This document shows, in pieces, positions 9,426 to 42,910 of a stretch of 63,959 nt of DNA. The translations under genes were made by a program, and so were the position numbers. Within the stretch, counting starts at the first letter, position 1, and each line of letters starts with the position of its first letter. The DNA lies in NCBI GenBank assembly GCA_028280855.1, contig JANQLA010000087.1:1-63959 (forward strand). The letters run 5' to 3'. The notes under the pieces are model-generated. The model searched no databases. It had not been told where the DNA came from and saw nothing but the letters and a program-made list of their open reading frames with translations. This stretch comes from Melioribacteraceae bacterium. GTDB taxonomy: Bacteria > Bacteroidota > Ignavibacteria > Ignavibacteriales > Melioribacteraceae.

Positions 9426-9713
9426 TCAATTATGTGTAATTCTTATTTCTAAGCGGCAGTCTAAAGCTTCTAAATATTTTTTTATTGTTGCAAGAGACGG
9501 TGAGTGTTTACCGCTGCTAAGCGAGGACTCCAGCCTTGTAATTGCCTGCGATTTTGTTCCCATTTTATCTGCTATTTGCGCTTGACTAAGCCCGGTTTTT
9601 TTTCTTGCCCGAAGCATTTCTTTTAAAAGAGTAAATTCCGGCTCAAGCTTTTCATATTCTTTGCGCACAGACGTATTTTTTAGCGCTTTGCTTTTAAGCT
9701 CTTTATGTGTCAT
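9426..9713 (-). CDS. higA: XRE-family HTH antitoxin (HigA-like)
   Basis: 95 aa with the HTH GLSQAQIADKMGTKSQAITRLES. It overlaps the upstream toxin-like gene by 4 nt. Confidence 0.7.
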   Translation of the reverse strand: MTHKELKSKALKNTSVRKEYEKLEPEFTLLKEMLRARKKTGLSQAQIADKMGTKSQAITRLESSLSSGKHSPSLATIKKYLEALDCRLEIRITHN

Positions 9714-10036
9714 TTCGTTAATACCTCTTTAATCCTGTTTCTTGCAATTTCTATTTCTTTTTGGGGAATCTTTTGTGATTTCTTAATAAACAAATGAAGC
9801 ATTATAATTTTATTACCTAACATAGTACAATAAAACACTCGTGCTGTGCCCTCTTTACTTTTAATCCTTAGTTCAAGTAAACCACCACCAAGAGATTTCG
9901 TATGCGGCAATCCCAAGTTAGAACCAAATTCGAGCATTAAATCAGTCAGCCTTAAATAACGCGCTAAAAGACCGCTGGGTAGAGATAGAATTTTCTTTTC
10001 AAGCTCAGTACTGTAATATCCTATACTCCATTTCAT
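9710..10036 (-). CDS. higB: RelE/ParE-superfamily toxin of the Gp49/HigB type
   Basis: 108 aa. LELRIKSKEGTARVFYCTMLGNKIIMLHLFIKKSQKIPQKEIEIARNRIKEV resembles Gp49/HigB toxins. The toxin-first gene order matches HigBA modules. Confidence 0.65.
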   Translation of the reverse strand: MKWSIGYYSTELEKKILSLPSGLLARYLRLTDLMLEFGSNLGLPHTKSLGGGLLELRIKSKEGTARVFYCTMLGNKIIMLHLFIKKSQKIPQKEIEIARNRIKEVLTK

Positions 10037-10340: not shown

Positions 10341-10685
10341 ATGCTATCGAAAAACTTAATGGCGGCGTCATCCAAACCGCTGATTCTTGCAATTCTTCGC
10401 GGAGGAGAGAATTACGGTTACCAGATAATCCAGCGGGTAAAAGAGTTATCCGGCGGAGAGCTTGAATGGGCTGAAGGAATGTTGTACCCGGTGTTACACA
10501 AAATGCAGAAAGACGGGTTAGTGCAAACCAAGTGGAAGTTATCGGATAACGGAAGGATGCGTAAGTATTACCGTTTAACAACCAAAGGCAGGGAAGCGCT
10601 TAATAATGAAAAACAGCAATGGTTAAAAGTGCACGGTATGCTTGAGAAAGTATGGCAGCCGGACGCTTCCCTGGGAACTACTTAA
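10341..10685 (+). CDS. PadR-family transcriptional regulator
   Basis: 114 aa. PLILAILRGGENYGYQIIQRVKELSGGELEWAEGMLYPVLHKMQKDGLVQTKWKLSDNGRMRKYYRLTTKGREAL is a textbook PadR winged-helix pattern. Confidence 0.9.
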   Translation: MLSKNLMAASSKPLILAILRGGENYGYQIIQRVKELSGGELEWAEGMLYPVLHKMQKDGLVQTKWKLSDNGRMRKYYRLTTKGREALNNEKQQWLKVHGMLEKVWQPDASLGTT

Positions 10686-10702
10686 TAACATTTGGGGGAA
10701 AT

Positions 10703-13345
10703 GTGTTTAACCTTGAACAAGCAATTAGCATGTGGAAAAAATCGCTTCGTAAAAATCCATCGCTCGAAGACGGTTACATTGAAGAGTTGGAACAGCACCT
10801 TCGCGATTTTATTGACGAATGTTTGAATAAAGGAATGGACGTTGAAGATTCGTTTAATGAAGCTGTAAAAAGTATTGGAGATGCTAAACGGCTTGAAAAG
10901 GAATACTTTAAATCTCGCACCGTAGTTCCCTTAAGCAACTCTCTTACCGGCCGTTTGTGGATGCCCGCTTTATTTGCTAATTATTTTAAGATAGCAGTGA
11001 GGCGATTGGTAAGAAATAAAAGCTACGCATTTATAAATATAATCGGCTTATCCGTAGCAATGGCCGCAAGCTTGCTAATTGTATTGTTTATTGCATACGA
11101 ATTAAGTTTCGATTCTTTCCACGCAAAAGGCGATAACATTTATCGACTAAACGAGATTCAAAAGTTAAAAGGCCAAAGCACTCAGCACGTCGCTTTGTCT
11201 ATGTATCCAATGGGACCAACTTTAAAGCAGGATTTCCCTGAGGTTAAGGATTTTACAAGAGTGCTGAGAGGCCCAAGCGTAGTAAATAAAAAAGATAAAT
11301 ATTTTGTGCTTGATATGTCATTTCATGTTGATCCGGCGTTCTTACAAATTTTCGATTTCGAAGTCGTTCACGGCGATCCTGCTACATCGCTTGGTCAGCC
11401 GGGAAACGTAATTTTAACGAGAGCAACGGCATTAAAAATTTTCGGTACTGAAAACGCGGTTGGAAAACAATTTGAAGCCGACTCAGCCGTGCATACCGTA
11501 ACCGGTATTTTAGAAAACGTTCCGAAGAATTCTCATTTACAATTTGATGCTTTGTTCTCAGTGATGAGCGCCGAAAATGACTGGATGCGCGATAACTGGG
11601 ATTCAAATTTTCTTGTAACTTATCTTTTGCTTGAAGAAGGCATTGATATAAAAAAGCTCGAAAGCAAATTTCCCGACTTTTTAACCAAGTACATCGGCGA
11701 AGATGCTACCGAAACATATACGCTTTACTTGCAAAAGTTAAGCAACATACATCTTGGTTCGATGGACATAACGCACGACTACAGGAATTTTCAGAAGTTC
11801 AATATAAATTCAATTTACACTTTCGGCACGCTGGCTCTCTTAATAATACTTATCGCCGGAATAAACTTCATGAATATTTCCGTTGCGCAATCATCCGTCA
11901 GGTCCAAGGAAGTCGGCATAAGGAAAACATTGGGAGCTTTCCGCGAACAAATTAAACGACAATTCATAAGTGAATCCCTTATTTCAACTATTGCTTCGTT
12001 TCTGATTTCGATCGGGATAGCATTCCTCGTGCTTCCTTATTTGAATGATGTAATAGGCAGGGAGTTAAATTTAAGTTTGCTTACCAAACCTTTATTTGTA
12101 TTCACATTAATAGGCGTTTCGCTTTTTGTTGGGTTATTGGTCGGGTTGTATCCTGCATTTGTTCTTTCAGCTTTCAGTCCTGCAAAAGCATTGGTAAAAA
12201 AGATTCACTCTAAGGGAAAATATTTTTCATTTAGAAGTTTTTTGGTTGTTACGCAGTTCGCTATTTCCATAGCTCTTATTGTTGCAACGGGCATCACCAT
12301 AAAACAGTTGGATTTTATAAGGAATAAAAACCTGGGCTTTGAAACCGATCAGGTGATCCTGGTAAAGATGAACAACACCGCCAATGAAAAATACGACCTG
12401 CTTAAGAATGAAATGAAGCTTAATCCGGACGTTATTGATGTTACACATTCGTCTCAGAAACTTGTAAACAACATACACCAGATGGGAGTGCGTTACGAAG
12501 GGGCGGATGATGTGGTTAAGTTGTCTATTTCAAATGTAAGCGTCGACTACAATTTTATACCGTTTTACGAAATGGAGATAATAGAAGGAAGAAATTTCTC
12601 CGAAGAAATTAAGACGGATTTTACGAATGCGTATATAATAAACGAAACTCTTCAAAATCAAATCGGCTGGGAAAATCCGGTGGGCAAACGGATAAAACTT
12701 GCCTGGTTAGAAGAAATGGGTAAAGTGATTGGCGTTGTTGAAGATTTCAATTTTAATTCGCTCCACAACAAAGTAGAGCCGTTATTGATGAGCGTGCAAG
12801 GATGGGGAGCTTCGGATTTAGCTGTAAAGATAAACGCATCAGCCGCCGGTAGGGCAATCAGCCAGATAAAGGATACGTGGAATAAGCATGTGCCTGATCG
12901 TCCTTTCGAGTATGAGTTTATGGATGAGCATTTTAAAAGCTTGTACGAGTCAGATGAAAAAACGAGCAATGTAATATCATTAATTGCGGGGTTATCAATA
13001 TTTATTGCCTGCCTCGGTTTGTTCGGGTTATCGTCAATAATTGTATCACAGCGAACTAAAGAAATCGGGATAAGGAAAGTTCTCGGCGCTTCATTAATTC
13101 AGTTATTCTCCAATCTTTCAAGCGATTTTCTAAAACTGGTATTGGTTGCATTTATAATATCGGTACCGGTCACCATGTATTTTATGAATAGCTGGCTTGA
13201 CGGATTCGTTTATAGAATTGAGCCGGGAGTATGGCTGTTTGTTTTATCCGGCTTACTGGCAATTTTTATTGCGCTTATTACAATCTCTTTCCACACAGTA
13301 AAAGCGTCGTTAACAAATCCAATTAAATCATTGAGATACGAATAG
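10703..13345 (+). CDS. Headed duplicated FtsX/MacB-type permease, array unit 1
   Basis: GTG start at 10703 chosen because VFNLEQAISMWKKSLRKNPSLEDGYIEELEQHLRD aligns with the paralog heads. The track ATG at 10652 would overlap padR. Two FtsX blocks are marked by SKEVGIRKTLGA and TKEIGIRKVLGA. The tail is NPIKSLRYE*. Confidence 0.85.
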   Translation: MFNLEQAISMWKKSLRKNPSLEDGYIEELEQHLRDFIDECLNKGMDVEDSFNEAVKSIGDAKRLEKEYFKSRTVVPLSNSLTGRLWMPALFANYFKIAVRRLVRNKSYAFINIIGLSVAMAASLLIVLFIAYELSFDSFHAKGDNIYRLNEIQKLKGQSTQHVALSMYPMGPTLKQDFPEVKDFTRVLRGPSVVNKKDKYFVLDMSFHVDPAFLQIFDFEVVHGDPATSLGQPGNVILTRATALKIFGTENAVGKQFEADSAVHTVTGILENVPKNSHLQFDALFSVMSAENDWMRDNWDSNFLVTYLLLEEGIDIKKLESKFPDFLTKYIGEDATETYTLYLQKLSNIHLGSMDITHDYRNFQKFNINSIYTFGTLALLIILIAGINFMNISVAQSSVRSKEVGIRKTLGAFREQIKRQFISESLISTIASFLISIGIAFLVLPYLNDVIGRELNLSLLTKPLFVFTLIGVSLFVGLLVGLYPAFVLSAFSPAKALVKKIHSKGKYFSFRSFLVVTQFAISIALIVATGITIKQLDFIRNKNLGFETDQVILVKMNNTANEKYDLLKNEMKLNPDVIDVTHSSQKLVNNIHQMGVRYEGADDVVKLSISNVSVDYNFIPFYEMEIIEGRNFSEEIKTDFTNAYIINETLQNQIGWENPVGKRIKLAWLEEMGKVIGVVEDFNFNSLHNKVEPLLMSVQGWGASDLAVKINASAAGRAISQIKDTWNKHVPDRPFEYEFMDEHFKSLYESDEKTSNVISLIAGLSIFIACLGLFGLSSIIVSQRTKEIGIRKVLGASLIQLFSNLSSDFLKLVLVAFIISVPVTMYFMNSWLDGFVYRIEPGVWLFVLSGLLAIFIALITISFHTVKASLTNPIKSLRYE

Positions 13346-13354
13346 GGATAAATA

Positions 13355-16009
13355 ATGTTCAATCTTAATAATGAAATAGATAAATGGAAAAAAACGTTTC
13401 GTAAAAATCCGTCGCTCGAAGACGGCTATATTGAAGAGTTGGAGCAGCACTTACGAGATGTTATTGAAGAATGCATGGAAAAAGGATCGGATGTTGAAAC
13501 AGCATTTAATGAAGCTGTAAAAAAGATAGGCAGCGGCGCTAGTATCAGCGATGAGTATTATAAGTCCGCTACAAGAAACAAGTTTAGCGCAAGACCTTCC
13601 TGGCGTGTACCGAGGTGGATGCCTGTAATGATTTGGAATTATTATAAAGTAGCTCTGCGAAATCTGAAGCGGAACAAGGGATTTGCGTTAATAAATATCC
13701 TTGGGTTGAGTATCGGTATCGCTGTTTTTGTTTTAATCACCTTTTATACTCAAAATGAATTAAACTACGACGGCTTTCACAAGGATGGAGAAAGAATATA
13801 CAGGCTGCTGCGGGAAGCGCCTAAATCTAAAGGAGCATATAAAATAGCAGTGACATCCGGCCCGTTCGCACCTGCAATTAAAACAGATTTTTCCGGCGTG
13901 GTAGATGAAGTGTTGAGAGTTTGCCCGGCAGACGGATTGGTCAGCTATCTCGATCAAAATATATGGGAAGACCGCTTTTATTTAGCCGACAATCATTTTT
14001 TTAATTTCTTCTCGTATGAATTATTGACCGGCAATAAAGATGAAGTGCTAAACGGTCCAAACAAACTGGTTATCTCTGACGAAACGGCTGTTAAATATTT
14101 TGGGGATGAAAACCCGGTCGGAAAGCTGATAAAGCTGGATAACCAATATTCCTTCGAGGTTACCGGGGTCTTTCGCTCGAAGCATCCGAACTCTCATTTG
14201 AACTTCGACTTTGTTGCCTCCCTTCAAACGTTTGAAGGAACATGGTTATTGGATGAATGGTGGAGCAATAGTGTTTTCACATATCTCAAACTTAATCCTA
14301 CTACGGATGTAAACTTATTGGATTACCAGCTTGACGCGTTTATGCTTAAATACTTTGGAGATGATTTCGCCCAAACTAAGCTTCCGATGACCCTTACTCT
14401 TGAGCGGCTTGAAAATATTTATATGAACGCAGACTCAAGATATGATCATATTGCTCACGGGAATAAAACGGTTGTAATAATTTTTTCTTTTGTCGCGGTC
14501 TTTGTGCTTCTTATTGCGTGTATCAATTTTATGAACCTATCGTCCGCTAAGTCAGTTAAACGTGCCAAGGAAATAGGTGTTAGAAAAGTAATCGGCGCGC
14601 AAAGGAAAAGTCTTGTAATGCAGTTCATTTCAGAGGCAACAATCTACAGCTTGGCATCCGGCGCTGTTGCCGCTTTACTAATTATATTTATCACTCCTCA
14701 TTTCGAAAATCTGACTGCTTCAGATATTGCCTTCCCTATTGATAATCCTTTGTTCTATTTAGTTTCCTTATTATTCCTGGTTTTCCTTGGCTTCCTTGCT
14801 GGAAGCTACCCTGCATTTGTTCTTTCCGGGTTCAAGCCTGTTAAAGCGCTTTCAAATGAGAAGCTTGCTGACGGTGGATCTGGAATCAGGAGAATATTAG
14901 TTGTTACGCAGTTTGTAATATCTATCGTATTAATATCCGGTGTTATTGTTGTATTCAGCCAAACCAGCTTTTTGATCAATAAAGACAGTGGTTTTGATAA
15001 GGAGCAGGTTGTTCTGATACGTGCAAACTCACCCGAAATAAGGAGCAAACGATTCGAGTTAAAAGAAGCATTAATTAAAGAGAGTGCAATTAAGAGTGTT
15101 TCGTTTATGTCCGGCGAGCCCGGCGGCTTTCACGATAGCTTTGCATTTAAGATTGAAGATAAAGGCGGTGAGTTTTTTCAAATGCGATCTTTGGTAACCG
15201 ACTTCGAATACTTGTCTTTGTATAATGTTGAACTCCTGCACGGAAGAAATTTCTCGGAACAATACTCGCTGGATTCAACACAAGCAGTAATTATAAATGA
15301 AACTGCAGCGAGGTACCTGGACTGGCAGCCAGCCGAAGCAATTGGCAAAAGAATGGCGATTCGTTTCTATAATGAAGAACAGTACCGTTCAGTTATCGGC
15401 GTTGTAAAAGATTATCATTTTACTTCGCTTCACACCAACATAGACCCGTTAGTAATTTTTCCCGCTAATGATCATCGTGTAATAGCAATTAAAATAAAAT
15501 CAGATGATATATCTTCCGTATTGAATACAATCGAAGCAAAGTTCGGCGAACTTATTCCCGGCTTCCCGTTTCAATACGAGTTTTTAGATGAAACATTTGA
15601 AGCGAATTACTCTGCTGAAAAAAAGCAGCTTTCAGTGCTTAGTATCCTTACCGTGCTTGCTATAACAATCGCCGTACTTGGATTGTTCGGCTTGTCGACA
15701 CATTCTGCCGAGTCTCGTAAAAAAGAAATCGGGATTAGAAAAGTGCTGGGCGCTTCAGCACAACGACTGATTGTCCTGCTCATCGGTAATTTTTTAAAAT
15801 TGGTTCTTGTATCAAATATTATTGCTATACCGGTAAGCTGGTATATATCGAAACATTGGCTTTCTAACTTTGCATATCGCACCGAGCTGACGATTGTACC
15901 TTTTGCACTGACTTTAATTGCAACCGTATTGATTGCCTTAATAGCTACCGGGCATCAAACCTTAAAAGCAGTATTTATGAACCCCGTGGAAAGTATAAAA
16001 AATGATTAA
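13355..16009 (+). CDS. Headed duplicated FtsX/MacB-type permease, array unit 2
   Basis: Head MFNLNNEIDKWKKTFRKNPSLEDGYIEELEQHLRD. Motifs AKEIGVRKVIGA and KKEIGIRKVLGA. 9-nt junction to unit 1. Confidence 0.9.
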   Translation: MFNLNNEIDKWKKTFRKNPSLEDGYIEELEQHLRDVIEECMEKGSDVETAFNEAVKKIGSGASISDEYYKSATRNKFSARPSWRVPRWMPVMIWNYYKVALRNLKRNKGFALINILGLSIGIAVFVLITFYTQNELNYDGFHKDGERIYRLLREAPKSKGAYKIAVTSGPFAPAIKTDFSGVVDEVLRVCPADGLVSYLDQNIWEDRFYLADNHFFNFFSYELLTGNKDEVLNGPNKLVISDETAVKYFGDENPVGKLIKLDNQYSFEVTGVFRSKHPNSHLNFDFVASLQTFEGTWLLDEWWSNSVFTYLKLNPTTDVNLLDYQLDAFMLKYFGDDFAQTKLPMTLTLERLENIYMNADSRYDHIAHGNKTVVIIFSFVAVFVLLIACINFMNLSSAKSVKRAKEIGVRKVIGAQRKSLVMQFISEATIYSLASGAVAALLIIFITPHFENLTASDIAFPIDNPLFYLVSLLFLVFLGFLAGSYPAFVLSGFKPVKALSNEKLADGGSGIRRILVVTQFVISIVLISGVIVVFSQTSFLINKDSGFDKEQVVLIRANSPEIRSKRFELKEALIKESAIKSVSFMSGEPGGFHDSFAFKIEDKGGEFFQMRSLVTDFEYLSLYNVELLHGRNFSEQYSLDSTQAVIINETAARYLDWQPAEAIGKRMAIRFYNEEQYRSVIGVVKDYHFTSLHTNIDPLVIFPANDHRVIAIKIKSDDISSVLNTIEAKFGELIPGFPFQYEFLDETFEANYSAEKKQLSVLSILTVLAITIAVLGLFGLSTHSAESRKKEIGIRKVLGASAQRLIVLLIGNFLKLVLVSNIIAIPVSWYISKHWLSNFAYRTELTIVPFALTLIATVLIALIATGHQTLKAVFMNPVESIKND

Positions 16010-16025
16010 ACGTAAAGGCTCAAAT

Positions 16026-18653
16026 ATGATCAATCTTGAAAAAGAAATAAACAAATGGAAAAAATCGCTTCGCAAACATACATCATTGGAAGAAGGAAAC
16101 ATTAAAGAACTCGAAGCTCATTTAAGAGATGCTTATGAAATTGAAATTAGAAAAGGTAAATCAAGCGTTGAAGCATTCCGGGACGCGAAAGATGCTTTAG
16201 GTGAATGCGGGAGTATTAATAATGAATATAGGAAATCGCATGCTCATCGAACGGAAGGCTCAAAAGCAGGGCAGATGTTTGCCGCAGCCCTTTGGTTAAG
16301 TTACTTAAAAGTGGGCGTAAGAAACTTAACAAAGAACAAGAGTTATTCTTTGATAAACATTGGCGGATTAGCAATTGGAATTCTGGTGTGCGCTTTTATT
16401 GCTTTGTTCATTAACAATGAACTTAGTTACGATAATTTTCATAAAGACGGAAATCGAATATACAGAGTGGTAAAAGATTTCGGGGGAACACTACCGGATG
16501 CTACAACGCCGCCGGCTTTAGCTCCTGCATTGTATTCCGAAATTCCTGAGGTTGAGGAGTCTATAAGAATAATGCCCGAATGGGACGCTAAAATTTTGTT
16601 GAGATATGGTGACGCAAGTTTTTACGAAAGCAATTTTTTACTGGCGGACTCAAATTTCTTTTCAATGTTTACTGTAAATCCTGTTGCAGGCGATTTGGAA
16701 TCAGCCTTGATCGATAAAAACTCTATTGTAATTACAGAGTCACTTGCTAAAAAGTATTTTGGAGACTACAATCCTATCGGAAGTGTTATAAATGCTGAAC
16801 GATCAGGAAGGAAAAAGGACTTAACAGTTACTGCTGTTGTAGAGGACTACCCGGAAAACGCGCACTTTGATTTCGATTTTATTATTCACTCATATGATAA
16901 TATTGATGAACATTGGGGATGGTACAATTTTTATACTTATATAAAGCTTAAGCCCAATATTAATATTGCAAATGTTGATCCAAAAATTCAGGAGTTATAT
17001 GAAAAAAATTGGGAGGGCGGCACCAACGTTTTTTATTCGCAGCCTATTTCCGATATCCATCTTCATTCAAACCTTAAATGGGAACTCGGAACAAACGGAA
17101 GCATCAACCAGGTAAACACATTTGCAATTATCGCCATCTTTGTTCTCATCATAGCAGCTATTAATTATATAAATTTGGCAACTGCAAGGTCTGCACTTCG
17201 TGCAAAAGAAGTGGGCATTCGTAAAGTTAGCGGCGCGTTTCGATTTTCACTTATAAAACAATTTTTGATTGAATCGGTTATCACTTCTGTTTTAGCGTTT
17301 ATTATAGCTGTAGGCGTGTTGTATTTTTTGTTGCCGACTTTAAATGAACTATTCAATTCCAACCTTATTTTATTTAATTCAAGTACAACATCGTTATTGA
17401 TAGCTCTTGCAATTGCTACGATTCTTGTCGGGATAATATCGGGCATCTACCCGGCCTTATATCTTTCAAAATTTCAGCCCGTAGTAGTGTTAAAAGATTT
17501 AAAAAATCTTAAAGGCGGTTTGCTTTGGCTGCGAAAGGGATTGATTGTAACACAATTCACGGTTTCAGCAATTTTAATTATCGGAACACTTGCAATACGG
17601 GATCAATTAAACTTCATCCGGGAATTCGATTGGGGAATAGAAAAAAATCACACGCTTGTTTTGCGTAACACCGATAGCTTCGAAAACCGGGACGCACTTA
17701 GAAACGAATTACTGAAATTTTCTTCTATAACGGAGGTGGGAAATGCATCTACAGTTATTGGCGAGTTGAACTGGACAAGAGGTATAAGAGAAAAAGGAAA
17801 GCCAGGTGAAGAAGATGTGTTAACTAACTTTTTAATTGTAGATGAAAACCTGCTAAATGTGCTTAACTTAAAAATGATTGAGGGCAGGAAGTTCTCCGAA
17901 AAATATCCTTCAGATCTGGAGGATGGAATAATCCTTTCGCGCAAGGCAATTAAAGAATTAGAAATAACTGAACCTGCTGTTGGAAAGCAAGTCGTTTGGG
18001 CGACACGCAACGATACGTTGATTTACCGAACAATAGTGGGAGTAACCAGCGACTTTTATTTCAGCTCTTTGCGAGAAGAAATTAAACCTTTTGCATTCGT
18101 ACCAAGCAAGTACAATTTAGCAACAACATACGTAAAACTAGCCGAAGACAATTACAGCGAAACCATTGAATACATAAGTGAAGTATGGAAGAAAATTTTA
18201 CCAAACAGACCAATGGAGTATTCTTTCCTGGATGACACCTTCGCGCAAATGCATAAACAAGATGCAAAGTTCAGTAAAATAATCGGAGTAATGACTTCAC
18301 TCGCTATCGTTATTGCACTGATGGGATTATTCGCTTTGACCGCTTATACGGTTGAGCGTAAAACTAAAGAAATAGGAATAAGGAAAGTGCTGGGAGCGTC
18401 GGTAAAATCAGTCGTTGTAATGATATCTGCCGATTTATTAAAATTGGTGGTTATCTCAATCATAGTCGCAATTCCAACAACCTGGCTGTTGATTGACAGA
18501 TGGTTGGAGGAATTTGCTTATAAAACTGAGTTAACAATTTGGACGTTTATTTTGGGGTCGATATTAACAATAACGATTTCAATAATAACTATAAGTTACA
18601 AATCAATAAAAGCCGCAACGGCAAACCCGACTAACTCATTGAAATATGAATAG
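16026..18653 (+). CDS. Headed duplicated FtsX/MacB-type permease, array unit 3
   Basis: Start set at MINLEKEINKWKKSLRKHTSLEEGNIKELEAHLRD (ATG 16026) by alignment with the paralogs. Motifs AKEVGIRKVSGA and TKEIGIRKVLGA. Confidence 0.88.
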   Translation: MINLEKEINKWKKSLRKHTSLEEGNIKELEAHLRDAYEIEIRKGKSSVEAFRDAKDALGECGSINNEYRKSHAHRTEGSKAGQMFAAALWLSYLKVGVRNLTKNKSYSLINIGGLAIGILVCAFIALFINNELSYDNFHKDGNRIYRVVKDFGGTLPDATTPPALAPALYSEIPEVEESIRIMPEWDAKILLRYGDASFYESNFLLADSNFFSMFTVNPVAGDLESALIDKNSIVITESLAKKYFGDYNPIGSVINAERSGRKKDLTVTAVVEDYPENAHFDFDFIIHSYDNIDEHWGWYNFYTYIKLKPNINIANVDPKIQELYEKNWEGGTNVFYSQPISDIHLHSNLKWELGTNGSINQVNTFAIIAIFVLIIAAINYINLATARSALRAKEVGIRKVSGAFRFSLIKQFLIESVITSVLAFIIAVGVLYFLLPTLNELFNSNLILFNSSTTSLLIALAIATILVGIISGIYPALYLSKFQPVVVLKDLKNLKGGLLWLRKGLIVTQFTVSAILIIGTLAIRDQLNFIREFDWGIEKNHTLVLRNTDSFENRDALRNELLKFSSITEVGNASTVIGELNWTRGIREKGKPGEEDVLTNFLIVDENLLNVLNLKMIEGRKFSEKYPSDLEDGIILSRKAIKELEITEPAVGKQVVWATRNDTLIYRTIVGVTSDFYFSSLREEIKPFAFVPSKYNLATTYVKLAEDNYSETIEYISEVWKKILPNRPMEYSFLDDTFAQMHKQDAKFSKIIGVMTSLAIVIALMGLFALTAYTVERKTKEIGIRKVLGASVKSVVVMISADLLKLVVISIIVAIPTTWLLIDRWLEEFAYKTELTIWTFILGSILTITISIITISYKSIKAATANPTNSLKYE

Positions 18654-18661
18654 GTAATGAT

Positions 18662-21322
18662 ATGTTTAACCTCGAAAGAGAAATCGGTAAATGGAAAAAA
18701 TCGCTTCGCAAAAATCCTTCGCTCGAAGACGGCTACATTGAAGAAATTGAACAGCATCTTCGAGATAGTATTGAAGCAAATCTTAACATGGGAATTGAAG
18801 AAAAGGCGGCATTCAAAGAAGCGGTAAAAATTGTAGGCGAGGGAACGCAGCTAAGTTCGGAGTATTACAAATCCGTTACGACTAATAAATTCAGTGCTCG
18901 ACCTTCGTGGCAAGCGCCGTGGTGGATGCCGGTTATGCTATGGAATTATCTTAAAGTCGCGCTCCGGAATTTTAACCGTTATAAAGGATATTCATTTATA
19001 AATATTGCCGGTTTGGGGATTGGCATAACATGTAGCGTACTTGTTTTAATTTATGTTTTACATTTATTGAGTTTCGATGCTTATCATACTGATGTTGATA
19101 GATTATACCGTGTTGGACTTAACATAAAAACAAATTTAGGAACGACGGGATATGCATTAAGCGTTCCGCCACTTGCTTCAAAGCTGAAATCCGATTTTCC
19201 GCAAGTTGAAGAAACTGCAAGAATATTTTACTTCAATAACAAGCGGGCAATAAAAAATAAAGACGACTTATTTTATGAGGATGGCTTTGTTTATGCTGAT
19301 AATGAGATTTTTAATGTGTTAACAATTCCTTTTATTGCCGGTGATCCCCAAAATGCTCTTGTTAATCCTTTTTCACTGGTTATACCGGAAAGGATTTCTA
19401 ATAAACTATTTGGAGAGGAGAGTGCCTTACATAAAACAATAAATCTTGACGGCTTTGATTATAAAGTAACAGGTGTAATTAAAGATCCTCCCAGTAATAC
19501 ACACTTACCTTTTGACCTCTTTATTTCAATGCATGACTTAAGAAATCCGCCATGGATGCAGGATTGGACATGGCCGGGGATGTTCACTTATGTAAAGCTG
19601 AAGCCGAATGTTAATGTTGCTGATTTTGAAAAATCAATAATTAATTTAATTGAGGCGAGCATTAATTCTAAATCAAGTATAACTGATAAAAAACACGAGT
19701 TGTTTTTGCAGCCGGTACGAGAAATTTATTTAAGCACTCCTTTGGAATATGAAGCGAATCCCGGAAATCCAGCATTAGTAGGGCTATTGATTACTGTTGG
19801 TGCTTTTATTCTTTTGATAGCATGTTTTAATTATATAAATCTTGTTACTGCAAGGATGATAAAGAGATCAAAAGAAGTCGGAATGAGAAAAGTTTTAGGA
19901 GCAAAAAGGACACAGCTTTTCTGGCAATTTTTAAATGAGTCGTTTTTTATGACGTCCTTCGCATTTTTTATCGGATTACTTATTCTATACATGTTATTTC
20001 CTTTCTTTCAAGAACTAACAGGAGTAAACATTGAACCATCCACTTTATTTGGATGGAAATATATAGCTTGGTTAATCTTACTGTTGTTAACAATTACGAT
20101 TATCTCCGGGTTTTATCCTTCATTTACTCTTTCTTCTTATTCACCAACAAAAGCGCTAAAAAATAATCCAAAGTTTGGATTCAAAGGAAATTCTCTTAGA
20201 AGGGTTTTGGTTATTAGTCAATTTGTAATGTCGATTATTTTAATCTTTTGCACTATAGTTATGTCTGATCAATTCGGTTTTATGAAGAATAAAAATCTTG
20301 GTTTTAACAATGAACGGAAGCTCATACTTAATGTTTACGAGATGAGCTCATTAACAACAAATTCAGAATCCATAAAAGGAAAGCTTTTAGAAATTCCTTC
20401 TATCAAGGAAGTCGCGGTTTTATCAAATGTTCCGGGAAAGGGAATCGGGAGTTTAACCACAAAGGGAACCGGGGAAAATGCTTCAAAAGAACATATGATG
20501 TACTATAACTTTGTCGACTATCAATTCATTGACAGCTATCGAATCGGATTAGTAGAAGGAAGGAATTTTATTGCAAATAGTATGAAAGATATACTGGAAT
20601 CGTGTTTAATAAATGAATCGGCTGCAAATACATTTGGATGGACGCCTCAAAAAGCAATCGGAAAAAAAATAATTACTGGTCTAAGAGGAACAACAAAGGA
20701 AATAATTGGTGTTGTAGACAACTTTCATTACAGAGGAGTGCAATATAAAATTGAACCACTTGTAATAGAATATGATCCAACAATGTTCACAACCATAAGT
20801 GTAACATTAACTAATGACGATATACCTAATTCAATTGAAAATATTAAAAAAACGTGGTCATCAATATTTCCGAACAAACCCTTTGAATATTTCTTTTTAG
20901 ATGAATTATGGAACGAGCTTTATGAAACGGAAGAAAACACAAAAAGGATATTAAACATTTTTACAAGTTTGTCAATAGTAATTGCGGCAATTGGATTATT
21001 TGGGCTTGTAGCATTCATTGCCGAAAACAGGAAAAAAGAAATTGGACTAAGAAAAGTAATGGGATGTTCGACAAAAGGCGTAATGATGCTGATGGTTTGG
21101 CAATTTATTAAATGGATTATTATATCAAATGTTATTGCAATTCCAACAGCTTATTATTTTATGAATAAATGGCTCCAAGACTTTCCTTCTAGAATTAATA
21201 TTGAACCCTGGATAATAGCTGCGACTTTCACTATTTCAGTACTTGTTGCTGCGATTACTGTCCTGTATCAATCTATAAGAGCAGCATTAGGAAATCCTAT
21301 TGAGGCGCTGAAATATGAATAA
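18662..21322 (+). CDS. Headed duplicated FtsX/MacB-type permease, array unit 4
   Basis: Head MFNLEREIGKWKKSLRKNPSLEDGYIEEIEQHLRD. Motifs SKEVGMRKVLGA and KKEIGLRKVMGC. 8-nt junction. Confidence 0.9.
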   Translation: MFNLEREIGKWKKSLRKNPSLEDGYIEEIEQHLRDSIEANLNMGIEEKAAFKEAVKIVGEGTQLSSEYYKSVTTNKFSARPSWQAPWWMPVMLWNYLKVALRNFNRYKGYSFINIAGLGIGITCSVLVLIYVLHLLSFDAYHTDVDRLYRVGLNIKTNLGTTGYALSVPPLASKLKSDFPQVEETARIFYFNNKRAIKNKDDLFYEDGFVYADNEIFNVLTIPFIAGDPQNALVNPFSLVIPERISNKLFGEESALHKTINLDGFDYKVTGVIKDPPSNTHLPFDLFISMHDLRNPPWMQDWTWPGMFTYVKLKPNVNVADFEKSIINLIEASINSKSSITDKKHELFLQPVREIYLSTPLEYEANPGNPALVGLLITVGAFILLIACFNYINLVTARMIKRSKEVGMRKVLGAKRTQLFWQFLNESFFMTSFAFFIGLLILYMLFPFFQELTGVNIEPSTLFGWKYIAWLILLLLTITIISGFYPSFTLSSYSPTKALKNNPKFGFKGNSLRRVLVISQFVMSIILIFCTIVMSDQFGFMKNKNLGFNNERKLILNVYEMSSLTTNSESIKGKLLEIPSIKEVAVLSNVPGKGIGSLTTKGTGENASKEHMMYYNFVDYQFIDSYRIGLVEGRNFIANSMKDILESCLINESAANTFGWTPQKAIGKKIITGLRGTTKEIIGVVDNFHYRGVQYKIEPLVIEYDPTMFTTISVTLTNDDIPNSIENIKKTWSSIFPNKPFEYFFLDELWNELYETEENTKRILNIFTSLSIVIAAIGLFGLVAFIAENRKKEIGLRKVMGCSTKGVMMLMVWQFIKWIIISNVIAIPTAYYFMNKWLQDFPSRINIEPWIIAATFTISVLVAAITVLYQSIRAALGNPIEALKYE

Positions 21323-21332
21323 AGGAGGAATA

Positions 21333-23987
21333 ATGTTCAACTTAGAAAAGGCAATTAAAAAATGGCGTAAGTGTCTAAGAAAGAATCAGACACTTGAAGA
21401 CGGCTACATTGAAGAAATTGAACAGCACCTTCGAGATAGTATTGAATCAAATCTTAACATGGGAATGGAAGAAGAAGCGGCATTCGAAAAAGCGGTAGAA
21501 ATTGTAGGCGAGGGAACGCAGCTAAGTTCGGAGTATTACAAATCCGTTACGACTAATAAATTCAGCGCTCGACCATCGTGGCAAGCGCCGTGGTGGATGC
21601 CGGTATTAATTTGGAATTATCTTAAAGTCGCGCTCCGGAATTTTAACCGTTACAAAGGATATTCATTTATAAATGTTGCCGGGTTAGCCTTGAGCGTTAC
21701 GGTCTTAGTGTATATTTTTCTCTGGATAAGTAATGAGTTGTCATATGACAAATTTCATTCGAAATCCGAAAATATTTACAGGGCTGTTTGGGAAGCTAAG
21801 TACGGAAATAATGAATGGGCGATTCCACTTGTGAGCCCACCCTTGGAACGAACACTAAAAAACAAATTCCCTGAAGTTGAATCCGCTGTCAGCTTGATGA
21901 AAGGAAGTAAAATATTTCAATTGAAAGACGAATATGTTGAAGAGAAGAAAGTCCTATACACAACAGAATCTTTTTTCGAAATATTTGATGTTAACTTTAT
22001 CCACGGGAGTCCGGGAAATTTATTGAACGACCCAAGCTCTGTAGTGATTACGGAGGAATTTGCAAAAAGATTTTTCGGTGATAAAAATGCGACGGGCAGA
22101 ACACTAAAAACTAATAGCGGGGAATTATTAAAAGTAAAAGCGGTAGTCGAAAGCTTTCCTCAACAATCTCATTTCAAGTTCAACATTTTAGCATCTTTAA
22201 ACAGTTTATCATACTATAAAAGCAGGGAAAATAGATGGGGATTTGCAACCGTATACACATATGCTCTTCTTAATGAAGGGATCGAAATAAAAAGTCTGCA
22301 GGAAAGCCTTAACAGTTATATTCTAGATGAAATCTCTGGTGCTAACCTGAAGAATTCAGATAACTATGACAGGTACTACTTTCAAGCATTGGAAGATATT
22401 CATTTGCACTCCGGGCTTAGCTACGAGTTACAGACAAACGGAAATATTTTATATGTGTACATACTTACAACCGTGGCGGTTCTGATTTTATTACTGGCAA
22501 TAATTAATTTCGCAAACCTTGCGTCGGTTCGATCAATTGAAAGGTTAAATGAAATAGGTATCCGAAAAGTTTTGGGAGCTGAAAAGAAGCAGGTAATTAA
22601 TCAATTTCTTGCGGAAGCGTTTTTTCAAACTGTTGTTGCTGTTTTTATTGGCATTACAATTTTATTTCTTGCCGTACCGGCTATAAACAGCTTTACTAAA
22701 GCATCCATTTCCAGTGCGTCATTGATAAATTCTGATGTAATATTACTTATTATATCCTTATCTGTTTTTATTGCTCTATCAGCCGGCTCGTATCCTGCTT
22801 TTTATATTTCTAAATTTAACCCGGCCCGAATAATTAAGAAACAAATCAGTGCAAAGCCGCATCACGGTAATTTCCGTAAAATACTTGTCTCGGTACAATT
22901 TATTCTCTCTACATGTATTATTGCCGGTACACTTGTAGTAATAAGCCAGCTGGATTTTATCAAAAATAAAAACCTGGGATTTGATAAAGAGCATGTTCTG
23001 ATAGTGAAGAACCTTTCTTCAGTTCGAAGCCAGCTTAATACCTTTAAAAACGAAATTACATCGCAATCCGGTGTAGTTGATGCATCTGCTGTTCAAACGT
23101 TACCTTCTTACGAGTTCGACTCTACTATATTCGGGTTGGAACAGCCGGCAAATTATAAAGAATCTTCACTAACATATAATTTTATAGACGAAAAATTTGT
23201 CGATGTACTAAAGCTAAATGTTATTGAGGGAAGAAACTTCTCGAAAGAATTTAGTACAGACTCGCTTTCTTTTCTCATAAATGAATCGGCTGCAAAGGCG
23301 TTTGGATGGGATAACCCGATAGGCAAAAAATTAGGTTTTGGAAAATCGGTAGAATTAGACGGACCGGTAATAGGCGTAATTGAAGACTTTAATTTCCGGT
23401 CGCTTCATAAAAGTATTGAGCCCATAATATTTCCTTACCTCAGGTGGTCTCCTAATTATTTCGCTGTAAGACTTCAGCCGGGAAGTATGGCAGAACACAT
23501 TAGCAGGATTGAAGAAATTTGGAAAAAATATGTTCCCAATCGACCATTTGAATACACATTTCTCGATGAACAATTTGCCGGGTTATACCAAAGTGAAACA
23601 AATATGGCTAATGTACTAAGCGCCTTTGCGCTTATCTCAATATTTATCGCCTCAATAGGATTATACGGGTTATCATCAATTATTGTTAAACAGAGATACA
23701 AAGAAATTGCAGTAAGAAAGGTGATGGGTGCTACGGTTTCCAAGATATTTGTACTGGTATCAAAAGAATTTTTCATAATCGTATTCATATCAAGTCTGAT
23801 CTCGCTGCCCGTTTCATATTCCGTAATGTCGTCCTGGTTAAACAATTTCGCTTATAAAACAGAGCTGGGTTTAATGATTTTTATAGCATCGGTGCTTATA
23901 GTTTTAACAACCGCCTTGATATCCACGGGTTTGCAAGCAATTAAAGCAGCAATAGCTAACCCAGTAAACTCAATTAAATACGAATAG
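21333..23987 (+). CDS. Headed duplicated FtsX/MacB-type permease, array unit 5
   Basis: Start set at MFNLEKAIKKWRKCLRKNQTLEDGYIEEIEQHLRD (ATG 21333). Motifs LNEIGIRKVLGA and YKEIAVRKVMGA. The RBS aggagg lies just upstream. Confidence 0.88.
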   Translation: MFNLEKAIKKWRKCLRKNQTLEDGYIEEIEQHLRDSIESNLNMGMEEEAAFEKAVEIVGEGTQLSSEYYKSVTTNKFSARPSWQAPWWMPVLIWNYLKVALRNFNRYKGYSFINVAGLALSVTVLVYIFLWISNELSYDKFHSKSENIYRAVWEAKYGNNEWAIPLVSPPLERTLKNKFPEVESAVSLMKGSKIFQLKDEYVEEKKVLYTTESFFEIFDVNFIHGSPGNLLNDPSSVVITEEFAKRFFGDKNATGRTLKTNSGELLKVKAVVESFPQQSHFKFNILASLNSLSYYKSRENRWGFATVYTYALLNEGIEIKSLQESLNSYILDEISGANLKNSDNYDRYYFQALEDIHLHSGLSYELQTNGNILYVYILTTVAVLILLLAIINFANLASVRSIERLNEIGIRKVLGAEKKQVINQFLAEAFFQTVVAVFIGITILFLAVPAINSFTKASISSASLINSDVILLIISLSVFIALSAGSYPAFYISKFNPARIIKKQISAKPHHGNFRKILVSVQFILSTCIIAGTLVVISQLDFIKNKNLGFDKEHVLIVKNLSSVRSQLNTFKNEITSQSGVVDASAVQTLPSYEFDSTIFGLEQPANYKESSLTYNFIDEKFVDVLKLNVIEGRNFSKEFSTDSLSFLINESAAKAFGWDNPIGKKLGFGKSVELDGPVIGVIEDFNFRSLHKSIEPIIFPYLRWSPNYFAVRLQPGSMAEHISRIEEIWKKYVPNRPFEYTFLDEQFAGLYQSETNMANVLSAFALISIFIASIGLYGLSSIIVKQRYKEIAVRKVMGATVSKIFVLVSKEFFIIVFISSLISLPVSYSVMSSWLNNFAYKTELGLMIFIASVLIVLTTALISTGLQAIKAAIANPVNSIKYE

Positions 23988-23995
23988 GAAAAGAG

Positions 23996-26641
23996 ATGTT
24001 CAATCTTGAACGTGAGATAAATAACTGGAAAAAATCTCTTCGAAAACATCCTTCGCTCGAAGACGGGTATATTGAAGAACTTGAACAGCACCTTCGGGAT
24101 AGTATTGAAGCAAATGTTAACATAGGAATGGGTGAAGACACGGCATTCAATGAAGCGGTAAAAATAGTTGGTGAGGAAACACAACTAAGTTCTGAATATT
24201 ACAAATCAGATACGACTAATAAATTCAACGCTCGACCATCGTGGCAAGCGCCGGGATGGATGCCGATTTTACTTTGGAATTATTTAAAAGTCGCACTCCG
24301 GAATTTTAATCACTACAAAGGTTATTCTTTAATTAACATTTCAGGATTAGCTGTTGGTTTTACGTGCTTATTAATCATTGGGATGTTGGTTCATTTCGAG
24401 CTGAGTTATGATAAGTTTCATACAAATGCTGAAAATATATATAGAGTTTACACGGAAGCTAATCGTCCTTCGGGCTTATTTACGATGGCGCCTGTCCCGT
24501 TTCCGATGGGACCGGCAATCGAGAATGAAGTGCCGGAAATTAAAAGAGCCGTTCGAATTTCAGAAAAGGATTATTTGTTTTCAAACGGTGATAATCAGTT
24601 CTATGAGAGTGTAGAGTTCGTAGACAAGAATTTTCTCGATGTGTTTTCTTTTAATTTAATTAAAGGATTCGCAAATGAACAAATACTTTCCGAGCCTAAC
24701 TCGGTAGTAATTTCGGAAAAAGTATCGGAGAAGTACTTCGGGGACGAGGATCCAATAGGGAAAACTTTCCTGGTTGATAATAAACACAATTTTAAAGTGA
24801 CGGGTGTTGTAGAAAACAAACCGGGAAATTCTTCTATTCCTTATAATATACTTGGTTCGATAAATACGCTCGAAAACCTTGGCTATAAAAGAATTAATAA
24901 TTGGAACAGCTACGGCAATGATTATTTGTTTTTGTTGCTGAATGAAAGCGCTAAAATAAAAGAAACAGAACACAAGATTAACACGGTTATGGATAAATAC
25001 CTTGGTGATTCCAAGGATCGATTTCATTATCGTTTGCAGCCGATAAAAGAAATCCACTTCTCAAATTTTAATTACGATTTAGCGCGCACCATTCCTCCGG
25101 CGATGATTTATGTTCTGGGTATAATAGGTTTTTTTATCATTTTAATTGCCTGCTTTAATTTTATTAACCTATCAACAGCGCGGGCGGCCCATAGGAGCAG
25201 GGAGATCGGTATTCGAAAAGTAGTAGGCGCTAATAGAATTCAACTTATTAAACAGTTTCTCGGGGAAGCGTTTTTAACAACTTTAATTGCTTTTCTTTTT
25301 GCAATCGCAATGGCAAGGTTTTTCATCCCTGAAATTAATTCTCTTCTCAGAACCGGCTTGTCCCTTAAAGTCTTTGGTGAGCCTGTTTTCATTGGTTTGG
25401 CAGCTTTAATATTATTATTGACTGCTTTGTTGGCTGGAGGTTATCCGGCGCTCGTGTTATCTAATTATAAACCTGCAGGCGTATTAAAAAATTTATCGGT
25501 TGGACGTAAGAAGGGTTATTCATTAAGAGCAGCATTGGTAACGGCACAGTTCGCAATAGCTGTATTTCTTATTACCGGTACATTAACAGTCTATTCCCAA
25601 ATAGATTTCGTGATTAACAAAGATTTAGGATTCATTAAGGACAGGTCGTATGTATTACGATTTTATGACAAGAAAATTACTGAAAAAGGCAGCGTGCTTA
25701 AAAATTCGATTTTGCAAATACCCGATGTTGTAAAGGCAACATTTTCGAGTGGAACACCGGCTAGTAATACTACGGATAGAAGTAACTTTAATCCTGTAGG
25801 AGGCACAAAGGCCGACGAGCAACATTTGCAAATACTGGAAGTAGATTATGATTTCTTCGACACGTATGGGTTTGAAGTTATAGAGGGGAGAAAGTTTTCA
25901 AAAGAGTATATATCGGACTCTGTGAATATTCTCCTTAATGAAACAGCAGCGAAAAAATTTGGTTGGGAAAGTGTGCTCGGGAAGTTTATTACACCCGGTG
26001 ATAGTGATACGAAACTCAAAATAATTGGAAAAGTAAATGATTTCCATTATTCATCACTTAGAGAAAATATTTGGCCGATAATGTTGCGGTTAAACAACAA
26101 CGGAAACCGGTTTTTAACAATTCAATTAAGCGGTAACAATACTGCTGAAACCGTGCAAAAAATAAAGGACGTATATTCAGCATTCTCTCCGAATTACCCG
26201 GTCGACAGTTTTTTTATTAATGAAAGTTTCGAACGCTACTATAGGGTTGAGTCGGTAATGGGTAAAATGCTTACTGCATTTACGATGATTACAATCTTTA
26301 TAAGCTGTATAGGAATATTGGGATTAGCTTCATTTACAGTTGAGAGGAAGTCTAAAGAAATAGGTATTCGCAAAGTAATTGGCGTGTCTGTTACAGGAAT
26401 TATCCTGATGATAAGCAAAGAGTTCATTAAATGGATTTTAATTGCAAATGTAATTGTATTACCGCTTGCTTATTTAGCCATGAATTCCTGGCTGAATAAT
26501 TTCGCTTATCGCGTTGAGTTCAACTATGCAATATTCGGAATGACGTTCTGCATTTCACTAATAGTTACTGTTATAACGGTTGGATATCACTCTGCAAGAG
26601 CTGCATTTGCAAACCCTGTTGAGGCATTAAAATATGAATGA
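23996..26641 (+). CDS. Headed duplicated FtsX/MacB-type permease, array unit 6
   Basis: Head MFNLEREINNWKKSLRKHPSLEDGYIEELEQHLRD. Motifs SREIGIRKVVGA and SKEIGIRKVIGV. 8-nt junction. Confidence 0.9.
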   Translation: MFNLEREINNWKKSLRKHPSLEDGYIEELEQHLRDSIEANVNIGMGEDTAFNEAVKIVGEETQLSSEYYKSDTTNKFNARPSWQAPGWMPILLWNYLKVALRNFNHYKGYSLINISGLAVGFTCLLIIGMLVHFELSYDKFHTNAENIYRVYTEANRPSGLFTMAPVPFPMGPAIENEVPEIKRAVRISEKDYLFSNGDNQFYESVEFVDKNFLDVFSFNLIKGFANEQILSEPNSVVISEKVSEKYFGDEDPIGKTFLVDNKHNFKVTGVVENKPGNSSIPYNILGSINTLENLGYKRINNWNSYGNDYLFLLLNESAKIKETEHKINTVMDKYLGDSKDRFHYRLQPIKEIHFSNFNYDLARTIPPAMIYVLGIIGFFIILIACFNFINLSTARAAHRSREIGIRKVVGANRIQLIKQFLGEAFLTTLIAFLFAIAMARFFIPEINSLLRTGLSLKVFGEPVFIGLAALILLLTALLAGGYPALVLSNYKPAGVLKNLSVGRKKGYSLRAALVTAQFAIAVFLITGTLTVYSQIDFVINKDLGFIKDRSYVLRFYDKKITEKGSVLKNSILQIPDVVKATFSSGTPASNTTDRSNFNPVGGTKADEQHLQILEVDYDFFDTYGFEVIEGRKFSKEYISDSVNILLNETAAKKFGWESVLGKFITPGDSDTKLKIIGKVNDFHYSSLRENIWPIMLRLNNNGNRFLTIQLSGNNTAETVQKIKDVYSAFSPNYPVDSFFINESFERYYRVESVMGKMLTAFTMITIFISCIGILGLASFTVERKSKEIGIRKVIGVSVTGIILMISKEFIKWILIANVIVLPLAYLAMNSWLNNFAYRVEFNYAIFGMTFCISLIVTVITVGYHSARAAFANPVEALKYE

Positions 26642-26693
26642 TATTAAGACGCGATTCCGCTTTCGAAGGGTTGATTTGTTAAAGTATGAATGA
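26642..26693 (+). pseudogene. Ghost 3' tail of a permease unit inside the unit 6/7 spacer
   Basis: The 61-nt spacer ends with ttaaagtatgaatga (26679..26693). This is identical to the genuine last 15 nt (L K Y E stop) of unit 8 at 31938..31952. It is preceded by gattccgct, which resembles the aatcctgtt (N P V) of real tails. Confidence 0.5.
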
Positions 26694-26702
26694 GGCAAAG
26701 AT

Positions 26703-29306: not shown

Positions 29307-29321
29307 ATTGAGGGCATTCCA

Positions 29322-31952: not shown

Positions 31953-32005
31953 TACTAAATCGAAATCCCGCTTTGGCGGCGATCGACTCTCTAAAAAATG
32001 AATAA
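31953..32005 (+). pseudogene. Ghost 3' tail of a permease unit inside the unit 8/9 spacer
   Basis: The spacer contains aatcccgct...tctctaaaaaatgaataa. In frame from 31949 this reads ..NRNPALAAIDSLKNE*. By hand count 15 of the last 18 nt match the genuine end of unit 9 (tcgcttaaaaatgaatag). Confidence 0.45.
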
Positions 32006-32023
32006 TACAGCGAAGGTTATAAA

Positions 32024-34654: not shown

Positions 34655-34662
34655 GTAAACCT

Positions 34663-37314: not shown

Positions 37315-37328
37315 ATAAGTGTAGGCCT

Positions 37329-39953: not shown

Positions 39954-40005
39954 CTCTCTTGCGGAGCTCTTGCCTGCGGAGTGATACATTAAAATGGAGA
40001 GAGAA

Positions 40006-42653: not shown

Positions 42654-42910
42654 GCAATAGAATAAAAATCTGAATTAAAAATTTCTACTCAACTCAAATG
42701 CTTTTTTAAGATTAGCTTCTTTAATGCCTTCGATTACTTCGGAGTTGTCACCAAGTATTTCCATTAAGGCATTTTTAAAATATCACATTGATCTTTTGAC
42801 ATAACCTTTTTGTGGAATAGCTAAGAATAAAATACTTATCAAGCGGACAACTATTTTTCTTTCTTCGGAGTCTAACTTGTAATATCTTAAAGTTAAACCG
42901 GAGAAAGCGC

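Follow-up and report, generated by a model that had tools for sequence, protein, structure and literature searches.

The 63,959-nucleotide (nt) stretch of DNA analysed here, hereafter the window (Melioribacteraceae bacterium, assembly GCA_028280855.1, contig JANQLA010000087.1, forward strand), contains a tandem array of permease genes in which two neighbours, U4 and U5, share a nearly identical tract of 287 nt close to their 5' ends on otherwise divergent sequences. The array genes lie head-to-tail on the + strand behind a single PadR regulator gene and encode proteins of about 880 amino acids (aa), each with two FtsX and two MacB_PCD stretches recognized by Pfam. Units were named U1–U12 and U14; 'head' denotes an N-terminal extension of about 92 residues, and 'body' the remainder of the permease. 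No ABC ATPase (ABC_tran) match was found among open reading frames (ORFs) of 150 aa or more in the window. Comparison was made with the contigs L001, L002, L003 and L084–L088, of which L088 represents a closer relative, its PadR being 66% identical to that of the window. The genes concerned were as follows:

10341..10685, + strand: PadR-family winged-helix regulator gene leading the tandem array (PF03551, E = 5.8e-25)
10700..45268, + strand: the whole tandem array, with 12 headed units (U1–U12) and one headless unit (U14)
18662..21322, + strand: U4, 886 aa, a permease of duplicated FtsX/MacB_PCD type whose N-terminus carries permease prefix domain 1
21333..23987, + strand: U5, 884 aa counted from the ATG at 21333, which has an AGGAGG motif just before it
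23996..26641, + strand: U6, with a body orthologous to L088_3 (65% aa identity) and L002_4
42911..45268, + strand: U14, the last array unit, headless, 785 aa, starting VFKNHIKIALRN

The homogenised head tract

The original prediction held that U4 and U5 carry near-identical heads over 287 nt, with about 18 mismatches and some 94% identity, that these heads include an uninterrupted identical run of 67 nt, that U6 is related but less similar, and that the bodies are only about 30% identical. Computed alignment bore out all four statements. The U4 and U5 tracts were identical at 270 of 287 positions (94.1%), leaving 17 mismatches and no gaps; the longest exact run was 67 nt, with the sequence that had been quoted, and a run of at least this length is unsurprising given 17 mismatches in 287 nt (P ~0.16). 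U6 (24059–24345) was 83.6% identical to U4 and 84.3% identical to U5, while the bodies of U4 and U5 shared 32.3% of amino acids and 45.9% of nucleotides. A second pair of homogenised heads, in U10 and U11, showed 89% identity over 272 nt on bodies that were 33% identical in amino acids. The copies of the two tracts were these:

18725..19011, + strand: shared head tract, U4 copy, codons 22–117 of U4; refined to 18730–19009 by the segment test described below
21396..21682, + strand: shared head tract, U5 copy, 94.1% identical to the U4 copy; 21401–21680 by the segment test
24049..24345, + strand: shared head tract, U6 copy, homogenised with U4 and U5 at an earlier time (about 84–86% identity)
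34672..34943, + strand: second homogenised head tract, U10 copy, paired with U11 (segment score 66.5, null maximum 11.7)
37338..37609, + strand: second homogenised head tract, U11 copy, paired with U10

Synonymous divergence (pS, dS) was estimated by the Nei-Gojobori method, together with dN. Within the tract, U4 and U5 had a pS of 0.14, a dS of 0.16 and a dN of 0.043, against a pS of ~1.0 in the 21 codons before it and 0.76, which represents saturation, across the ~770 codons of the body; the predicted excess of head over body identity therefore extended to synonymous sites. Where U4 and U5 encode the same amino acid, the codons were identical in 75 of 81 cases within the tract, 4 of 11 before it and 101 of 242 in the body, and synonymous differences in the tract were highly significantly fewer than in the flanks (Fisher test, p = 7.5e-21). 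The U6 tract had a dS of 0.74 to U4 and 0.56 to U5, while the head columns of non-converted pairs were saturated (pS 0.75–0.89; U2/U4, U2/U9, U7/U10, U4/U9 and others). Since synonymous sites were homogenised in the tract only, the likeness of U4 and U5 reflects common ancestry and not constraint.

This bears on purifying selection, acting on the head protein or on an embedded nucleotide element (RNA or regulatory), which might preserve such likeness without recombination. Heads do contain invariant motifs, and over all non-converted pairs they were more alike than bodies (41–67% against 30–42% aa identity). However, synonymous homogenisation was limited to the tract and to specific pairs, the heads of other pairs being saturated, and the most conserved 21 codons, just upstream, differed at synonymous sites. 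The 80 nt before each unit stood at background identity, and conversion did not reach into the intergenic region upstream or the tail of the gene before it; no nucleotide element common to the other nine units was seen; and the heads of orthologues diverge at the pace of their bodies, as described below. Selection of either kind is very improbable as the cause of the match.

A segment test was applied to 55 unit pairs, in which the best-segment log-odds of each pair was conditioned on the conservation of each column among the other pairs, and the null distribution was obtained by simulation (300 simulations for U4–U5; null maxima 11.7–16.2). Four of the 55 pairs rose above the null, all of them in the head and all between adjacent or next-but-one units:

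U4–U5: score 122.5 (null maximum 14.6), 18730–19009 and 21401–21680
U10–U11: score 66.5, 34672–34943 and 37338–37609
U5–U6: score 56.0, 21410–21646 and 24073–24309
U4–U6: score 52.9, 18715–18975 and 24049–24309

No significant body segment was found in any of the 55 pairs.

Identity had been predicted to collapse exactly at the start of the first transmembrane helix (TM1). The collapse was real, but its position was slightly different: the 3' edge of the tract lay directly after an invariant INxxGL motif and 5–9 residues into the predicted TM1 helix (residues 108–132 in the AF2 model), ~25 codons within the core that headless family members also have. The 5' edge was sharp too, with the first 21 codons of U4 and U5 not homogenised and, in the codon alignment, differing even at synonymous positions of common amino acids. 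Both edges sat in the two nucleotide blocks that are best conserved in this region, where background identity was ~76% (LEDGYIEE) and ~58–63% (KGYSFINxxGL). Taking helix positions from the AF2 model, the U4 tract encodes head helices 2–4, which are cytoplasmic, a linker, a juxtamembrane helix and the beginning of TM1; it comprises about 11% of the gene.

The 17 differences between U4 and U5 consisted of five synonymous and 12 non-synonymous nucleotide changes, the latter in nine codons. Two clusters were apparent. The first, at 18796–18827, comprised I45M and four K/E charge flips (codons 48, 52, 53 and 56) in or beside predicted helix 3, without a synonymous change nearby; the second comprised five substitutions within 7 nt (18934–18940), in codons 91–93 (VML against VLI). 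Neither was statistically significant, and they may represent divergence after conversion, on a surface helix, or else patchy repair that left an unconverted patch. Positive selection after conversion was considered for the helix-3 K/E cluster and rejected, as seven non-synonymous and no synonymous changes in 18 codons did not amount to a significant excess (rough p ~0.17).

Separate histories of heads and bodies

Neighbour-joining trees (200 bootstraps, own distance code) were built separately for heads and bodies, and were incongruent with 91–100% bootstrap support. Together with the low dS of the tract and its saturated flanks, this agrees with the predicted difference in history between heads and bodies. 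In the body tree, clades with 100% bootstrap support joined units to sequences from elsewhere: U4 with L001_1 and L002_3, U6 with L088_3, U2 with L088_1, U7 with P0096, and U8 with L084_1. In the head tree, the supported clades were U4 and U5 (91–99), U4, U5 and U6 (98–100), U10 and U11 (100), L002_2 and L002_3 (98–99), and L088_2 and L088_3 (94). Thus, U6 and L088_3 were body orthologues (100), while their heads each grouped with paralogues of the same genome (98 and 94). Body orthology set against within-genome grouping of heads is what concerted evolution classically produces, and in this case only the head shows it.

The L088 contig contained body orthologues of U2 (62%) and U6 (65%), and the outside relatives nearest to the U4 body were 51–55% identical, closer than any paralogue in the window. 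Head and body identities between body orthologues were about equal (0.62/0.62, 0.67/0.65, 0.53/0.53 and 0.58/0.58); their heads being as diverged as their bodies, the head is not intrinsically slow to evolve. These comparisons also concern the possibility that a whole unit was duplicated recently and that its body then diverged extremely fast, while its head remained unchanged. The adjacency of U4 and U5 in a tandem array would suit such a history, but the synonymous sites of the bodies were saturated (pS 0.76), the U4 body was closer to outsiders (51–55%) than to the U5 body (32%), and the U5 body was nearest to a different, headless group, at 43–45% compared with 32% to U4. Whole-unit duplication can be given practically no credence.

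The ten best outside matches of U5 (P0121–P0130; 42–45% aa identity, ~783–801 aa) all had no head. Headless members, U14 included, have their N-terminus at the position corresponding to U4 residue ~93 (e.g., MWKNYFKIA...). Head presence was patchy over the body phylogeny, which implies repeated gain or loss of the head. Given that its body lineage is headless elsewhere, sequence comparison suggests that U5 acquired its head at some earlier time; that U5 was already headed before the recent event follows from its first 21 codons, which are head sequence yet not U4-like.

It could be supposed instead that the tract itself is a graft, i.e., that a normally headless U5 lineage took the head of its neighbour as a cassette, through illegitimate or micro-homology-mediated recombination. 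The headless matches of U5, the patchy distribution of heads across the body tree and the existence of stand-alone head proteins all speak for this, but U5 retains 21 head codons upstream of the tract that do not resemble U4 (pS ~1.0), and the 3' edge lies within the universal core, away from the head/core junction. As an explanation of the shared tract, grafting is unlikely, if less so than the alternatives above; an older graft followed by recent conversion is possible, and would be compatible with gene conversion as the best explanation.

Other observations on headed and headless sequences may be recorded here. The nearest relatives of U4 included both headless (P0005, 55%) and headed proteins. 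The body of U14 was the closest of all to another unit (U9, 64% nt identity over 2.3 kb), and U14 was 58% identical in amino acids to the headless outside protein P0166. Stand-alone proteins of ~140 aa, consisting essentially of a head only, were found on long contigs (P0335, P0328, P0342 and P0321), and one of them, from Pedosphaera parvula, is named 'permease prefix domain 1-containing protein' by NCBI. An exact-protein look-up of U4 returned no record, and the cassette peptide VGE[GE]TQLSSEYYK, searched as a degenerate DNA pattern, had no match in metagenome contigs. The 80 loci found in a scan of genome contigs did not exceed 38% identity and for the most part lacked a head, which made them of little help in dating; a BLAST comparison of these loci with themselves showed only weak similarities at 5' ends.

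Homogenised heads were also seen beyond the window. In L002, 7298–7593 and 10001–10296 were 89.9% identical from the start codon, with a pS of 0.27 in the head and 0.74 in the body, and L003, an independent ENA assembly, bore the same homogenised tract. In L087, all three heads were 82–88% identical (pS 0.38–0.49) on bodies that were 48–53% identical (pS 0.70–0.74). Head-only homogenisation appears to have occurred independently in three other assemblies (L002, L087 and L088).

The base accuracy of the window itself deserves comment. In U12 (39994–42653), a frameshift within a T7 run (41898–41904) divided the gene into two ORFs; the frames flanking this run read ...MEQGRFF and FSRQFSTDSTAIIINE..., in agreement with the family consensus. 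The uvrB gene (49870–51886, - strand) was likewise split at a run of nine T/A (~50508–50516). Both breaks look like homopolymer indel errors of long-read assembly and not true pseudogenes, and U12 is probably intact in reality. Because these breaks point to an error-prone assembly, it might be argued that reads from one paralogue entered the assembly or polishing of the other, giving a false shared segment. Against such an artefact, there are 17 differences between the copies, whose frames both remain open; the edges coincide with conserved motifs of the coding sequence; U6 carries an older, graded version, and U10 and U11 form a separate pair; and the same pattern recurs in independent assemblies from other projects (L002/L003, L087 and L088). 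An assembly or polishing artefact is exceedingly unlikely.

Probable interlocus gene conversion between neighbouring units

The 287-nt match between U4 and U5 is very probably explained by recurrent, homology-bounded interlocus (i.e., ectopic, non-allelic) gene conversion. U4 and U5 would be anciently diverged, adjacent tandem paralogues, whose bodies each have orthologues or closest relatives of their own in other genomes, and between which the patch of codons 22–117 was copied by homologous recombination without exchange of the flanks. The edges of the tract would be set by the available homology and not by domain borders, while the bodies, at ~47% nucleotide identity, would be unable to support heteroduplex formation. 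The original prediction had left open either conversion or the recent swap of a module; conversion fits better than a clean swap, because the tract omits the first 21 head codons and ends ~25 codons into the universal core, so that its edges are not at domain borders.

The conversion of U4 and U5 would be the latest of a series that includes an older homogenisation of U4, U5 and U6 and a separate event in U10 and U11; earlier conversions may keep neighbouring heads sufficiently alike to convert anew, with the outcome that heads evolve in concert atop divergent bodies. Among three-way sites in the tract, U4 and U5 agreed against U6 at 35, U4 and U6 at eight, and U5 and U6 at nine. These counts place the U4/U5 event as the most recent, over an older homogenisation of the three (dS 0.56–0.74). 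As the heads of U4, U5 and U6 were equidistant from that of L088_3 (64–67%), the events post-date the split from the L088 lineage. Gene order and flanks were intact, which is compatible with non-reciprocal transfer. The direction of transfer was not discriminated: the tract gave eight sites against nine, and although U5 was the outlier before the tract, the identity of U4 and U6 there was at background; head comparisons with orthologues were too diverged to indicate the donor.

While we infer recombination from the tract, its edges, its low synonymous divergence, the incongruent trees and the recurrence, several points weigh against this interpretation. The longest exact matches of non-converted heads were only 13–24 nt, and anchors were not clearly longer in heads, since the median longest exact match was 13 nt in heads and bodies alike (bodies having six times more sequence). 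Heads before the event may have been 60–85% identical, which is low for classical RecA-dependent exchange; the molecular route could be RecA-mediated conversion or template switching. No near-identical relative preserving the pre-conversion allele was found, so the event is reconstructed from one genome and distant relatives, and a single sequence cannot demonstrate non-reciprocity. Finally, the apparent homopolymer frameshifts indicate imperfect base accuracy, which cannot, however, create an in-frame match of 287 nt.

Head function and known systems

In the window, as in L002, L084, L085, L086, L087 and L088, every run of headed permeases had a PadR gene upstream of it. The headed units of L001 are at the start of the contig, placing their upstream side outside it, so this rule covers six of seven related contigs. 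In L087, one further unit followed a small toxin-antitoxin insert. A second, shorter PadR gene (105 aa, 27.8 bits to TIGR03433) preceded other permeases in L001 (7492–13668) and L002 (20643–22655); these had a different N-terminal extension (MKKEKTRFPFLLRVLLFFILPY...DFEELY...) that did not match permease prefix domain 1, and different types of PadR seem to go with different types of head.

The arrangement resembles that of HAAS, a helix-turn-helix (HTH)-associated alpha-helical signalling domain that is always paired with a PadR-like regulator (Ravi et al. 2024, PMC11237479). That study lists proteins in which HAAS is joined to FtsX-like transmembrane and MacB/PCD domains, and puts forward a role for HAAS in relaying signals to PadR (PMC11237479). 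As in the HAAS-PadR dyad, the window combines a small, N-terminal, cytoplasmic helical domain on a multi-transmembrane protein with a stand-alone PadR gene beside it. The AF2 model of the head (pLDDT 78) had helices at residues 23–42, 47–59 and 61–72. Unlike HAAS, the heads contained no GxP motif, the break falling at a conserved G59 without a proline; and unlike the dyad, one PadR gene precedes 12 headed permeases and not a single partner. Pfam HAAS (PF22564) matched two of 24 heads, with a best E of 0.061, and neither of two window heads that were scanned singly. A profile search of the head against the PDB gave no DUF1048 structure and no convincing homologue, comparison of the head model with the PDB by Foldseek gave no match and was uninformative, and a search with a profile of the head alone yielded mainly short proteins lacking annotation, with no bridge to HAAS or DUF1700.

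By analogy, the head is possibly a PadR-docking, HAAS-like domain. A further proposal, which is tentative and on balance doubtful, is that selection maintains the homogenisation of heads: all 12 would be HAAS-like docks for the single PadR of the array, conversion would keep one compatible interface, and the bodies would be free to diversify in their periplasmic MacB_PCD domains. If true, the array would be a signalling device with many inputs and one regulator, and with a shared plug evolving in concert; heads might then also be transferred to permeases that normally lack one, such as those of the U5 lineage, recruiting these into the regulon. Should the head be a PadR-docking domain, the pattern would point to the interface residues and suggest that the whole array reports to one regulator.

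More generally, the array offers a natural example of gene conversion decoupling the evolution of a small domain from that of the rest of the protein, in which the cytoplasmic heads of envelope permeases evolve in concert within a genome and each body retains an ancient history of its own. A practical consequence is that, for the very abundant FtsX/MacB-type permeases, inclusion of the first ~120 codons will yield wrong phylogenies and orthology calls.

The surroundings of the array included two small overlapping ORFs of 108 and 95 aa (9426–10036, - strand) immediately upstream of the PadR gene, which by eye resemble a toxin-antitoxin pair with a RelE/HigB-like toxin and an HTH antitoxin; the L087 insert, located within its array, was a ParE-type toxin pair. 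A LytS-type histidine kinase gene (His_kinase and HATPase_c) and the ORF that follows it, which by eye only resembles a LytTR-type response regulator, lay together at 5577–7426, ~3 kb upstream of the PadR-led array. A type IX secretion system (T9SS) sorting domain was also present in the window and, with the nearest homologues, suggests an organism of the Bacteroidota/Ignavibacteria group.

The array is related to the acidobacterial duplicated orphan permease (ADOP, TIGR03434), with which it shares duplicated FtsX and MacB_PCD domains, a length of ~800–900 aa, the formation of large families of paralogues, a PadR gene directly before the permeases (TIGR03433 in ADOP) and the lack of an ABC ATPase among the ORFs scanned. 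Scores to TIGR03434 were, by contrast, 290.6 bits for U4, 297.0 for U5 and 265.7 for U1, where the cut-off is 622.3, and the window PadR scored 93.9 bits to TIGR03433, just under the cut-off of 101.8. The permeases and their PadR are ADOP relatives, and are not members by NCBI thresholds. Permease prefix domain 1 (NF038403, cut-off 30 bits) was matched by the head alone in U4 (31.3 bits), U12 (40.8) and an L087 head (34.9), and was borderline within the full proteins of U4, U5 and U1 (26.9–30.7 bits), U4 (26.9) and U5 (28.8) falling just under the cut-off. This model covers ~59 residues (U4 residues 13–68) and is shorter than the converted tract.

Interlocus conversion and concerted evolution are established in bacteria, for instance in tufA/tufB and in rRNA operons, and babA/babB and other Hop-family genes of Helicobacter pylori have homogenised ends and divergent middles. 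Full-text literature searches found no earlier report of conversion in PadR-led FtsX/MacB-type permease arrays; this is a well-known process in a gene family for which it had not been reported in the literature searched, and the result extends existing knowledge and overturns nothing. A survey of concerted evolution in prokaryotes argues from synonymous sites, as was done here, covers 26 genes in which the process is long-lasting and affects the whole gene, does not use the word 'permease' in its main text, and points out that genes evolving in concert often code for components of stable complexes (PMC6053082). The shared-interface hypothesis echoes the argument from 'paralogue interference' in the same survey (PMC6053082). 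As in known bacterial conversion, the paralogues here resemble each other more closely than orthologues do within one segment, with homogenised synonymous sites; the tracts measure a few hundred nucleotides, neighbours are preferred, and the segment and its flanks give incongruent trees. It is unlike known cases in that only ~11% of the gene is affected, on saturated bodies of 32% aa identity, within a PadR-led array of FtsX/MacB-type permeases.

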